Below are positions 44,096 through 46,245 of a stretch of 64,000 nt of DNA, in pieces. The DNA lies in the IMG/VR virus record IMGVR_UViG_3300036770_006954, positions 96,001 to 160,000 of that record. One strand, given 5' to 3'. The position numbers and the translations under genes are program-made. The notes below the pieces were generated by a model. The model searched no databases. It was not told the DNA's origin and was given only the letters and a program-made list of their open reading frames with translations. Each line of letters starts with the position of its first letter. Within the stretch, counting starts at the first letter, position 1. The DNA is from a virus.

Positions 44096-44201
44096 AAGTC
44101 AAGACAGGAATCGAACCTATTTTACCGCGTACATAGCCTAACACTAAAAGTTCGTTTGACTACCTCTTTAACCTACGATTACGAGCCACTCGCTCTTGAC
44201 T
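44096..44201 (-). ncRNA. tRNA-like RNA, AGTCA family
   Basis: AGTCAAG/CTTGACT acceptor, ATAGG-TTCGATT-CCTGT T arm, non-tRNA core. Confidence 0.65.
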
Positions 44202-44207
44202 AAATTA

Positions 44208-44272
44208 CCCGTCTTTCCAGGCTGTCAACAACTTATGTGTTAGCCTCACACATCAATCACTAGGTTGTCAGC
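44208..44272 (-). ncRNA. structured RNA ending TGACAG-CCTG-GAAAGA-CGGG
   Basis: P1 stem, ACAG, terminal hairpin; second copy at 44553. Confidence 0.55.
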
Positions 44273-44276
44273 TTTG

Positions 44277-44361
44277 TAGTCAGGACAGGATTCGAACCTG
44301 TAACTTTCGTAGATACCTTTCTGGCTCTCCCTACTGCGTATTCCTTTTTCGCCACCTGACT
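44277..44361 (-). ncRNA. tRNA-like RNA, AGTCA family, no anticodon loop
   Basis: AGTCAGG/CCTGACT, D arm, ACAGG-TTCGAAT-CCTGT. Confidence 0.7.
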
Positions 44362-44407
44362 AAAGTTAGTTTTCGGGACATTGGACAAAACTAACAAACC
44401 CTAAAAG

Positions 44408-44547
44408 TAATCGGGGTGGGAATTGAACCCACTCTAAAGGACGGTCCCTTTCTCAGTCACACAAGGTAATTACTCCTTGCTACACCTACCGTGTAATGCT
44501 TTGTGGCCACTCCACATTACCAAATGTCAACCATAGACATCCCGATT
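44408..44547 (-). ncRNA. expanded tRNA-like RNA (140 nt)
   Basis: AATCGGG/CCCGATT, GTGGG-TTCAATT-CCCAC, at least four internal hairpins. Confidence 0.65.
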
Positions 44548-44552
44548 ATGTT

Positions 44553-44642
44553 GCCTGTCTCTCCAAGCTGTCATACCTCCCTTGTATTCTGTTCTGGCAT
44601 ATAGCCGTTCCTAACGGTAAAGCGGTATCAAAAACCAGTATG
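44553..44642 (-). ncRNA. structured RNA ending TGACAG-CTTG-GAGAGA-CAGG
   Basis: CATAC/GTATG P1, ACAG, terminal hairpin. Confidence 0.55.
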
Positions 44643-44732
44643 TAGTCAGGACAGGACTCGAACCTGTACGAATGTTCCTTTCCCCGCAGACATAAAGTAC
44701 AACGGTGCGCCTACCAATTACGCCACCTGACT
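44643..44732 (-). ncRNA. tRNA-like RNA, AGTCA family
   Basis: AGTCAGG/CCTGACT, D arm, ACAGG-TTCGAGT-CCTGT, oversized anticodon-position loop. Confidence 0.7.
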
Positions 44733-44741
44733 ATAATAAAA

Positions 44742-44941
44742 TGGAAACCCCCCCTCTACGCTCACCGTAGTTGTGAATTTTACTGGACATAGTTTACTGT
44801 CCACCTGTTGCGAGTCGACTGCAGAGCAGGGTCCATCACAGAGTACCTTGGGGCATGTACAACTTCTTTATGGTTGCGACCCATTTGAAGCCAAGGTTCC
44901 TTTCAACGGTGCTAATCCGTCTTCTGTAAGGAGTTTTTCCA
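44742..44941 (-). ncRNA. unassigned ~200 nt multi-stem RNA
   Basis: TGGAAA/TTTCCA closing stem plus several internal helices. Confidence 0.6.
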
Positions 44942-44946
44942 TTTTG

Positions 44947-45044
44947 TGGTGTGAGCGGGATTCGAACCACGCGGCACAGTCTTTTTCACGGACTTGCTCT
45001 ACCATGGGAGTATCATATGAGTACTCCACCTGAGCTATCACACC
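44947..45044 (-). tRNA. tRNA-Phe(GAA)-like with hairpin inserted in D-loop
   Basis: GGTGTGA/TCACACC acceptor; GGAGTA...TACTCC inside the D loop. Confidence 0.7.
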
Positions 45045-45050
45045 TTATTG

Positions 45051-45131
45051 TACAGAGGGTGGGACTCGAACCCACACATCTTACGATACCGGTTCCTAAG
45101 ACCGGCGCGGCTACCGTTACGCCACCTCTGC
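45051..45131 (-). tRNA. tRNA-Leu(TAG)
   Basis: Cloverleaf, loop CTTAGGA. Confidence 0.93.
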
Positions 45132-45138
45132 ATTGAGT

Positions 45139-45282
45139 TAGTAGTAGTTGACTTTATCAGGAATCCCGCCTAACCCCATTTAAGAAGTCCAGCTTCACAC
45201 ACCATTAGAGAGAGGGTTAATTCTTAGTGTGTACCCTTGCGATATGCTCTCCCATACCGTCAACCCACGCATTGTACTACCA
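45139..45282 (-). ncRNA. unassigned ~140 nt structured RNA with possible pseudoknot
   Basis: GTAGTA/TACTAC, GTTGAC/GTCAAC, TACACACTA/TGGTGTGTG, TAACCC/GGGTTA. Confidence 0.55.
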
Positions 45283-45354
45283 ACCGTTTGTTTTTTCCAC
45301 CATTTCAAAGACCTTTTGTCTTAACAACACCACAAATATATGGTAATATTTTTA

Positions 45355-45858
45355 TCAAACCAAATCTTTATGAAAAACTTTTTCTGAATTTTGTTCTACC
45401 CAAGACAAACTAATAGAAACATGTTTGGAAGATTCTTTCTTCGATGATTCAATTTTGGTTTTCACTATTTCCAAAACCTTATCAGTTGTACATTTCCAAA
45501 TACCATTACAACTAAGTCCATCGTCTTTATCAAACAAGGCAAAAAAGAATGCATCGTTTCTTTTAACCCTGTGAAGATTATCTTCATGGATTCTATCAAG
45601 TTGAAAACTACCACCTTCTTTACAAGAAAGGTACTCGTATTTTTCTTTCCCATCTTTAGAATATGCGTCAGCACCATGTTTTGTTTTATGACATTCATGA
45701 CCAAGAATTTCGGAAACCATCCATTCTTTAATGAATCCTGGTGTTAACAGGTCTTGTTCAAACCCATTTTCCTTTTTGTATAGGTTTAGAGTCCCTACCA
45801 ATAGAAGGAGGGGATTTTCTTGTTGTGTTACCAAGTCGAGCAATTCATTTTGCGTCAT
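45355..45858 (-). CDS. PD-(D/E)xK-like nuclease candidate
   Basis: HGADAYSKDGKEKYEYLS. Confidence 0.45.
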   Translation of the reverse strand: MTQNELLDLVTQQENPLLLLVGTLNLYKKENGFEQDLLTPGFIKEWMVSEILGHECHKTKHGADAYSKDGKEKYEYLSCKEGGSFQLDRIHEDNLHRVKRNDAFFFALFDKDDGLSCNGIWKCTTDKVLEIVKTKIESSKKESSKHVSISLSWVEQNSEKVFHKDLV

Positions 45859-45873
45859 AGGGTTGTATGTTAG

Positions 45874-45946
45874 TGGGCCCAGTAGGATTTGAACCTACAA
45901 CCAACGGATTATGAGTCCGCTGCGCTAACCGTTGCGCCATAGGCCC
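45874..45946 (-). tRNA. tRNA(CAT), probably Ile2 (lysidine type)
   Basis: GGGCCTA acceptor, loop CTCATAA. Confidence 0.8.
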
Positions 45947-45992
45947 GTTATGTTGGTAAATTATAGAAAACCGAATCTATAATGTCAAATTG

Positions 45993-46065
45993 TACACCCT
46001 GAAGGACTCGAACCTCCGACATCTTGCATGTAAGGCAAGCGCTCTACCATCTGAGCTAAGAGTGT
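45993..46065 (-). tRNA. tRNA-Val(TAC)
   Basis: Cloverleaf, loop CTTACAT. Confidence 0.93.
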
Positions 46066-46069
46066 ATTT

Positions 46070-46130
46070 GCAGGATATCGCTTAACCTGCGGTGAGTGTA
46101 CCTTTCACCTTGTTCCCTTGCGGTACTACG
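46070..46130 (-). ncRNA. small RNA containing an LSU-rRNA-like motif
   Basis: AGTACCGCAAGGGAACAAGGTGAAAGGTAC followed by a GCAGG/CCTGC hairpin. Confidence 0.5.
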
Positions 46131-46139
46131 ATTTTTTTG

Positions 46140-46245
46140 AAGTCAGTACAGGTACTGCCCCTGTTGCTTGGTCTTTTGCTTAACAGAGTATTATCAATGA
46201 CACTCTGTGAACCTCACCCACGAGTTACTTTTACTCTAACTGACT
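46140..46245 (-). ncRNA. tRNA-like RNA, AGTCA family, T-loop GGCAGTA
   Basis: AGTCAGT/ACTGACT acceptor, ACAGG/CCTGT T stem. Confidence 0.6.

Follow-up and report, generated by a model that had tools for sequence, protein, structure and literature searches.

In the transfer RNA (tRNA) gene array of an uncultured lake phage, a set of tRNA-like elements is found in which the acceptor stem and T arm of a tRNA enclose a variable, non-tRNA interior, and the same design recurs across hundreds of phage contigs. The stretch of DNA analysed, here called the window, is 64,000 nucleotides (nt) long and comprises bases 96001-160000 of the 171.6-kb IMG/VR virus record IMGVR_UViG_3300036770_006954. Its source is a large or jumbo phage, since this 171.6-kb record is only 57% complete by the CheckV estimate. 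The elements in question are El1 (44096-44201, 106 nt), El2 (44277-44361, 85 nt), El3 (44643-44732, 90 nt) and El4 (46140-46245, 106 nt), all of them on the minus strand. Their description as a tRNA chassis carrying variable non-tRNA cores, put forward in a first-pass annotation of this DNA, is strongly supported by the family set out below. On balance, the tRNA half is best regarded as a handle for the maturation and stability, and possibly for the leucylation, of modular cargo RNAs, a reading held with somewhat more confidence than doubt.

The four elements lie where they had been placed and are connected by their acceptor and T stems. The plus-strand signature AGTCANNAYAGG occurs four times in the window against 0.21 expected, and this number was reached in 0/100 shuffles. 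Read on the minus strand, each element starts with AGUCA(A/G)(G/U) and closes with a T hairpin (5-base-pair stem, 7-nt loop), the complementary acceptor strand and a discriminator nucleotide. The acceptor is AGUCAAG/CUUGACU in El1, AGUCAGG/CCUGACU in both El2 and El3, and AGUCAGU/ACUGACU in El4. These changes are compensatory, as had been claimed: pair 6:67 is A-U in El1 instead of G-C, and pair 7:66 is U-A in El4 instead of G-C, both sides being altered. The T stem is ACAGG/CCUGU in El2-El4 and AUAGG/CCUGU in El1, where a U.G wobble stands at 50:64. The interiors have no mutual similarity in a BLAST comparison, and a normal anticodon loop is missing from all of them. Under the Rfam tRNA model, alignment is confined to the acceptor, D and T parts, with local ends jumping over 20-38 nt, and a canonical anticodon arm (5-base-pair stem, 7-nt loop, U33, purine at 37) is absent from El1-El4.

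The chassis is a widespread phage feature. At least 120 IMG/VR contigs contain, in up to six copies each, an exact 24-mer that covers the T arm and 3' acceptor strand of El2 and El3. The family set comprises at least 213 distinct members at 145 loci; the scan that collected it demanded a TTCRA T loop. The members share the frame AGUCAGG-UG-GCGGAAU(U)GGUAGACGC ... U-ACAGGUUCGAAUCCUGU-CCUGACU-A, into which inserts of 16-146 nt are set, with a continuous range of lengths and no conserved stem halves. Within the frame, U8 is conserved in 96% of members, A14 in 87%, the D-loop GG in 93% and A73 in 92%, while the TTCRA T loop is present in 100% by construction of the scan. Where members were picked by the D-arm and T-loop signature alone, a perfect 7-base-pair acceptor was found in 153 of 184 (83%) and a perfect T stem in 170 of 184 (92%), with many pair types. 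Moreover, the tertiary pair 15:48 covaries: C48 accompanies G15 in 8/13 cases and A15 in 9/178 (Fisher p = 7e-7). The inserts themselves are extremely diverse, the 211 cargos falling into 181 clusters, 159 of which are singletons.

The origin of the frame can be traced to a particular tRNA. Its positions 5-26, a stretch of 22 nt from the acceptor and D arm, are 100% identical to tRNA-Leu genes in all 5,426 E. coli genomes searched, and near-canonical tRNAs that share the family frame exist as well (Leu(UAA)-like, Ile(UAU)-like and Lys(UUU)). On these two grounds, the frame is identified, at the level of sequence, as the re-used body of a phage class-II tRNA-Leu. In spite of this ancestry, it is extremely improbable that the elements decode as genuine tRNAs whose anticodon arms are unusual or contain introns. 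A canonical 5-base-pair/7-nt anticodon arm in the correct position was found in just one of the 213 members, and an RNA without an anticodon stem-loop cannot decode. It is true that El2 and El3 score above the Rfam gathering threshold for tRNA (38.5 and 40.1 bits, compared with 14.9 bits for El1), that ARAGORN labels El3 as a tyrosine tRNA, and that the few near-canonical tRNAs named above stand on the same frame. When ARAGORN is run on the family, however, about 40 members receive scattered and inconsistent anticodons and 120 receive none. The continuous spread of insert lengths without conserved stem halves also speaks against decoding, as does the size of the inserts, which is far below that of a group I intron; introns of the group I and archaeal types were excluded by insert length and by the lack of conserved anticodon-stem halves. 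The assignment of El3 to tRNA-Tyr(GTA) was rejected too, as its claimed anticodon stem consists of two Watson-Crick pairs, one wobble and two mismatches.

El2 and El3 are the canonical representatives of the family. Both have the exact AGUCAGG/CCUGACU acceptor, a D arm with U8, A14, A15 and G18G19, a T arm of the form ACAGG-UUCRANU-CCUGU, and A73. In El2, U8 is followed by a D arm of the tRNA-Leu type (GCG/CGC stem, with A14, A15 and GG in the loop), U48 is present, and the T arm is ACAGG-UUCGAAU-CCUGU; after the discriminator A73 come C and then AA. Its cargo of 34 nt is predicted to fold as a bulged hairpin, and no homolog of it was found in pattern scans of IMG/VR or in BLAST comparisons with about 150 loci and five related virus records, which returned the frame only. 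El3 has the same frame with the T loop UUCGAGU, A73 and a cargo of 39 nt, which is 97% identical to that of L057:6118-6206, a locus that also carries a freshwater-1 RNA upstream. The frame covariance model R1 gives 77.1 bits for El2 and 69.2 bits for El3, against 20-36 bits for ordinary tRNAs, while El1 (29.0 bits) and El4 (21.7 bits) score as ordinary tRNAs do. The four, grouped as a single AGTCA family in the first-pass annotation, are not equivalent; at least three of them are members of the large phage family.

A fifth element, which had gone unlisted although it lies within the span described before, is a tRNA-like cargo RNA of 139-140 nt at 44408-44547 on the minus strand. Its acceptor is AAUCGGG/CCCGAUU and its T arm is GUGGG-UUCAAUU-CCCAC; it further contains a D hairpin and three cargo hairpins, and A73 is followed by C. 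Its cargo of 95 nt recurs in L125 and L053, on AGUCAGG/ACAGG frames, and in L011, on an AGUCGGU/GCAAG frame. In other words, one cargo is carried by three different frames. Double compensatory changes affect 12 of its 40 predicted pairs, including three acceptor and four T-stem pairs. Together with the 15:48 pair of the family and the helices of the El4 subfamily, covariation among homologs is therefore present both in the frame and in cargos. This pattern indicates that the cargo is under selection in the 139-nt RNA, and the El4 subfamily points the same way.

El4 belongs to this distinct and conserved subfamily, for which 14 homologs were found in a metagenome scan for its unusual T arm. Its acceptor, AGUCAGU/ACUGACU, is followed by the D hairpin GAGU-AAAAGUA-ACUC, a closing helix, the strands GUGGGUGA and AAAAGCAAAAGACCAAGCA, and an optional hairpin of 16 base pairs (fold z-score of the element, -2.94). 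The T arm has the usual ACAGG/CCUGU stem with the non-canonical loop GGCAGUA. In the D arm, U8, A14 and A15 are present and GG is absent from the loop, an arm type conserved in the 14 homologs. Across the subfamily, AGUCAGG/ACAGG stems are kept, with D loop AAAAGUA and T loop GGCAGUA, and the GUGGGUGA and AAAAGCAAAAGACCAAGCA strands are invariant. The discriminator is A73 in 13 of 14 homologs, unlike El4 itself, which has U73. Covariation is seen at 7:66, in the closing helix (UGG/CCA becomes UGU/ACA in L172) and in the long hairpin, which long forms such as El4 possess and short ones lack. Scans of IMG/VR for the 3' end of El4 and for the pattern of its hairpin gave no match. Since 14 homologs share the remodelled design with covarying helices, El4 is not decaying.

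The case of El1 is different in kind, and it is here that the alternative of decaying duplicates, i.e., pseudogenes of phage tRNA genes, has its best ground. El1 consists of the acceptor AGUCAAG/CUUGACU, A8-G9, a 4-base-pair mini D hairpin (CGAG-UGG-CUCG), the T arm AUAGG-UUCGAUU-CCUGU and U73, and it encloses an interior of 60 nt whose fold is not significant (z = -0.98). No homolog of its cargo or of its exact 3' end was found in pattern scans of IMG/VR or in BLAST comparisons with the loci and virus records used for El2. Its scores are weak (29.0 bits with R1, 14.9 bits with the Rfam tRNA model), it has A8 and U73, and an internal AGUCAA repeat suggests a rearrangement. On the other hand, El1 still has perfect 7- and 5-base-pair stems, with the compensatory A6:U67 pair, a canonical T loop and the U(-1) and C74 flanks, and a minor variant of the frame in L040, L011 and L067 likewise combines A8-G9 with a short hairpin that has GG in its loop. 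Judged from these features, El1 is a member that is young and specific to its lineage, or else one in decay. For El2-El4 and the family, decay is excluded by conservation and covariation, and as a general account it is improbable. The earlier argument that preserved pairing speaks against simple decay thus holds for El2 and El3, which have the family frame, for El4 with its 14 covarying homologs and for the 139-nt RNA, but not for El1, which has no homolog.

The sequences around the elements resemble those of tRNA genes. Among 125 members with analysed flanks, U is found at position -1 in 86% and C at position +74 in 97%, followed by an A-rich run. A trailer of the form N73-C-A/U is shared by 24 of the 26 canonical tRNAs in the window and by El1-El4; because the trailer reads in this way, only C74 of the CCA end is encoded. 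The idea of a processing and stability handle, also raised in the first-pass annotation, draws indirect support from the placing of the elements within the tRNA array, on the strand of the tRNAs, and from U(-1), C74 and the A-rich trailer, while processing and stability as such stay at the level of a prediction. According to this model, a phage class-II tRNA-Leu gave rise to the chassis elements, which would be stable RNAs without a decoding role, co-transcribed with the phage tRNAs. The constant half, made of the 7-base-pair acceptor, the tRNA-Leu D arm and the T arm, with A73 in the canonical frame, would fold as an acceptor-T minihelix with an elbow, and by virtue of this fold the host tRNA machinery would mature the RNA. 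RNase P would cleave at A1, the 3' end would be trimmed down to C74, and the CCA end would then be completed. The predicted product is a nuclease-resistant RNA that shows its module where a tRNA has its anticodon and variable arms. Such a module would be a structured cargo that evolves separately and is swapped among phages via recombination at the constant ends.

Leucylation is a further possibility for a part of the family. According to PMC9976931 and PMC2377443, citing Larkin et al. 2002 (PMC115294), bacterial leucyl-tRNA synthetase (LeuRS) needs A73, U8:A14, A15:U48 and the network of G18/G19 with the T loop (U55/C56), whereas a tRNA-Leu without the anticodon arm and the variable arm can still be charged. 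Six LeuRS sequence features occur together in 132 of 213 members (62%), including El2 and El3. The canonical frame, as seen in El2 and El3, is probably leucylatable, because the elements required by LeuRS are all kept and only dispensable parts have been lost.

Several observations weigh against the handle reading, or at least restrict its reach. In a sequence-level test, the complete LeuRS feature set was not found in El1 or El4, and leucylation is inapplicable to all four elements together because El1 and El4 have U73 and the El4 subfamily has lost the canonical elbow nucleotides while retaining the stem sequences. El1 gives no sign of selection. Selection on the cargo is demonstrated for few cargos only, as 159 of the 181 clusters are singletons. 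Complementarity of the cargos of El1-El4 and the 139-nt RNA to the rest of the 171.6-kb record does not exceed that of shuffled controls, so antisense targets did not emerge from this comparison. Additionally, a handle read by universal tRNA enzymes only does not explain the near-invariant sequences of the stems. Orthologous tRNAs in family-bearing loci have 57-73% identity in the acceptor and T arm and the frame is identical there, a difference that is inflated by the choice of the loci by their frame. The near-invariance suggests either that the stems are read sequence-specifically or that a cassette spreads horizontally.

In the main rival, the elements are pure tRNA mimics. The constant frame would then act as a sponge or decoy for some factor by which the acceptor-T minihelix or the elbow is recognised (LeuRS, EF-Tu, acceptor-end toxins or nucleotidyltransferases, or RNase P, for example), and the interior would only need not to decode. 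A frame that is near-invariant while the tRNAs of the same phages have diverged, the retention of the full LeuRS identity set, the restriction of the family to phages, the extreme diversity of interiors and the absence of a partner protein across loci are all in line with this proposal. Yet some cargos are conserved, with compensatory changes, even on changed frames, which is unlike filler, and several differing copies per genome are poorly explained by dosage alone. Mimicry as the sole function is thus considered unlikely. Moreover, the suggestion in the first-pass annotation of decoys for tRNA-targeting defences can hardly concern anticodon nucleases: such a role is unlikely because the anticodon loop is the missing part, and these enzymes are impossible as a target of a mimic.

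In another rival, the elements are mainly DNA-level cassettes, whose constant ends are recombination handles or products of gene conversion, with selfish or neutral spread within phage tRNA arrays. The array is indeed polymorphic. The close relatives L122-L124, with a neighbouring protein 91% identical, are without the block of El1-El3 and three tRNAs, and in the more distant relative L125 El4 is precisely missing between tRNA-Lys and a conserved 71-nt spacer. One cargo is found on various frames and various cargos on one frame, and a gene for an HNH endonuclease lies at 52951-53439. Nevertheless, conservation falls precisely on the nucleotides that build the tertiary structure of a tRNA, with covariation at 15:48, changes in the stems are compensatory, and the flanks agree with tRNA processing signals. 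Recombination at the ends is also compatible with an RNA function and therefore represents no true alternative to it. As a full explanation, cassettes are improbable, and the handle for modular cargo RNAs remains the preferred reading.

By the distribution of the 24-mer, the family is restricted to phages. Among 185,579 species genomes, it gave 16 matches, all in contigs of metagenome-assembled genomes and none in isolates; these matches are scattered over phyla and are mostly on short contigs, the pattern expected of mis-binned phage DNA. Mimicry of a host tRNA or an attP core was rejected on the basis that the 24-mer is absent from isolate genomes. No constant protein partner emerged when 1,308 open reading frames (ORFs) from 134 loci were clustered, as no cluster was present in more than 20 loci. 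The commonest neighbour was a terminase (20/134 loci), and other top clusters were DUF932 and proteins with no assigned identity. Additionally, the record, itself 57% complete, has no gene for a CCA-adding enzyme or a class Ia synthetase. Because neither an accompanying protein family nor such phage enzymes were found, the partners of the chassis RNAs should be host enzymes.

In kind, though not in sequence, the nearest published relative of the chassis RNAs is rnaC of phage T4. The T4 species 1 and 2 RNAs (rnaC, 139 nt; rnaD, 119 nt) are likewise stable non-coding RNAs among same-strand phage tRNA genes, and folding of the rnaC sequence gives a canonical T arm (CCGGG-UUCGAAU-CCCGG), an acceptor-like stem closed by the 5' end and a long structured interior. 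Unlike the chassis elements, rnaC has two U.U mismatches in the acceptor and is without the tRNA-Leu D arm, and the T4 RNAs are single copies, whereas the chassis family has an invariant shared frame with swappable inserts. A search of the 139-nt RNA against 50,697 phage records returned nothing relevant, and no likeness to rnaC was seen by eye; El1-El4 were not individually searched against rnaC or rnaD. We know of no function assigned so far to the T4 species 1 and 2 RNAs.

The chassis RNAs share 22 nt with class-II tRNA-Leu (RF00005) of E. coli, and El2 and El3 have kept U8:A14, A15:U48, G18G19, the T loop and A73. They differ from it by having neither an anticodon stem-loop nor a regular long variable arm, and by an A1-U72 acceptor sequence that is not found in isolate bacterial genomes. 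In transfer-messenger RNA (tmRNA), too, a tRNA acceptor and T arm close a large non-tRNA domain, and the molecule is charged by a synthetase that ignores the anticodon. The chassis elements, however, are without a tag reading frame, a series of pseudoknots and the G3:U70 alanine identity, and they have a full D arm, which tmRNA lacks. The tmRNA model (RF00023) gave a sole match on the elements, an 11-nt fragment of 7.1 bits at 44107-44117, and ARAGORN called no tmRNA there. A true tmRNA is encoded by the phage elsewhere in the window (33902-34312, 84.6 bits).

Comparable arrangements are known elsewhere. In the tRNA-microRNA-encoded RNAs (TMERs) of murine gammaherpesvirus 68 (MHV68), in the MALAT1 mascRNA and in engineered tRNA scaffolds, tRNA-processing enzymes are drawn in by a tRNA-shaped module, and a second small RNA is thereby produced or stabilised. 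Engineered scaffolds carry the cargo in place of the anticodon arm, as the chassis RNAs do, while in TMERs and mascRNA it stands beside the tRNA-like module and not inside it; such scaffold-type systems are eukaryotic or artificial. To our knowledge, none of them forms a family with hundreds of natural inserts. With tmRNA, TMERs, mascRNA and engineered scaffolds, the chassis family shares a logic, and its ancestry is separate.

No published description of the chassis family was found in full-text searches of the literature, and the Rfam models, applied to seven multi-copy arrays, detected tRNA and freshwater-1 only, with no known family for the cargos. Unnamed IMG/VR candidate RNAs that overlap ARAGORN tRNA-Tyr calls have been reported and may include chassis members (PMC10690425). 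The design is widespread, modular and strongly selected, with one near-letter-for-letter frame and well over 100 inserts, some of which are conserved with compensatory changes. Should RNase P, the CCA-adding enzyme and LeuRS be recruited by the frame, the chassis RNAs would represent a large unexplored set of phage effector RNAs and a natural counterpart of the tRNA scaffolds used in biotechnology for RNA expression. In a bolder version, which is offered tentatively, the family would be a scaffold platform of natural origin: a minimal tRNA-Leu body that can be leucylated, its sequence locked across very distant phages, with hundreds of interchangeable structured modules (aptamers, protein baits, ribozymes). 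Its RNAs would be matured, perhaps charged and bound by EF-Tu, and never decode; they would form a new class of phage effector RNA and possibly explain the T4 species 1 RNA. There is also a consequence for annotation, as ARAGORN and Rfam tRNA calls with arbitrary anticodons inflate the counts of phage tRNAs and suggest false suppressor or odd-anticodon tRNAs.

The window contains 26-27 tRNA genes, and El1-El4 occupy the densest portion of the array, on the same strand as the adjacent tRNAs and 5-90 nt away from these. A sigma-70 promoter with the perfect consensus TTGACA-17-TATAAT is located at 45988-45960 on the minus strand, between tRNA-Val and tRNA-Met, and is the likely start of a transcript bearing El3, the 139-nt RNA, El2 and El1. 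At the 3' end of the array, at 43628-43736 on the minus strand, there is another tRNA-like element (acceptor UGUCGGG/CCCGACA, T arm GUAGG-UGGGAUU-CCUAC) that is followed by eight U. It scores 24.4 bits with R1, has a fold z-score of -3.16 and is 89% identical in L122 and L123; with its U tract, it may be the operon terminator.

Other unusual tRNAs are encoded nearby. At 44947-45044 (minus strand) lies an odd tRNA, scored 41 bits by Rfam and not called by ARAGORN, which is 98-99% identical in L122-L124. Its D loop contains a 19-nt hairpin insert, its anticodon loop is GUGAAAA (GAA, Phe) with a C.A closing pair, and its T stem has a bulged U; a normal tRNA-Phe is encoded by the phage as well. 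At 36620-36696 (plus strand), ARAGORN calls a tRNA with a 4-base anticodon (UAAU; Rfam tRNA, 35.3 bits), which may represent a suppressor or frameshift tRNA, or a tRNA-like RNA of another kind. For most ORFs in or near the array of the window, Pfam gave no match. Amid the tRNA genes, a protein encoded at 37903-38493 (minus strand) has the HAD domain of 'Swiss Army Knife' RNA-repair proteins (PF18143, E = 2e-20).

The spacers of the array also contain conserved or structured segments. The freshwater-1 RNA (RF02979) at 44778-44840 (minus strand) scores 66 bits, just below the gathering score of 72, and in the arrays of L125, L017 and L057 the motif reaches 68-73 bits. A long-range stem (z = -2.3) closes the surrounding spacer of 214 nt (44733-44946). 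The 71-nt spacer from El4 to tRNA-Val (46068-46138, minus strand) is 91.5% identical in L125, although the neighbouring protein is just 69% identical, and it is probably a further small structured RNA. A stretch of 220 nt without an ORF at 45132-45354 (minus strand), from a 167-aa ORF to tRNA-Leu, has no Rfam match; its conservation is 89-92% in L122-L124 and partial (84%) in L125.

Immediately upstream of tRNA-Lys and El4, within the ORF-free region 46322-46605, a compact RNase P RNA-like element was identified at 46330-46553 on the minus strand. It contains CR-I GAGGAAACUCAGG, CR-IV UAGACUAAUG and CR-V ACAGAAUCCUGGUUA, and the P4 pairing is kept by compensated changes. Within the Rfam clan, the match is weak (RNaseP_arch, 16.6 bits, E = 0.006, over a 289-nt stretch). 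Homologs are present in L122-L124 and in the unrelated, chassis-bearing L039:7815-8085, and double changes occur in 16 of 64 predicted pairs. This compact RNase P RNA-like gene may process the adjacent array in this phage lineage.

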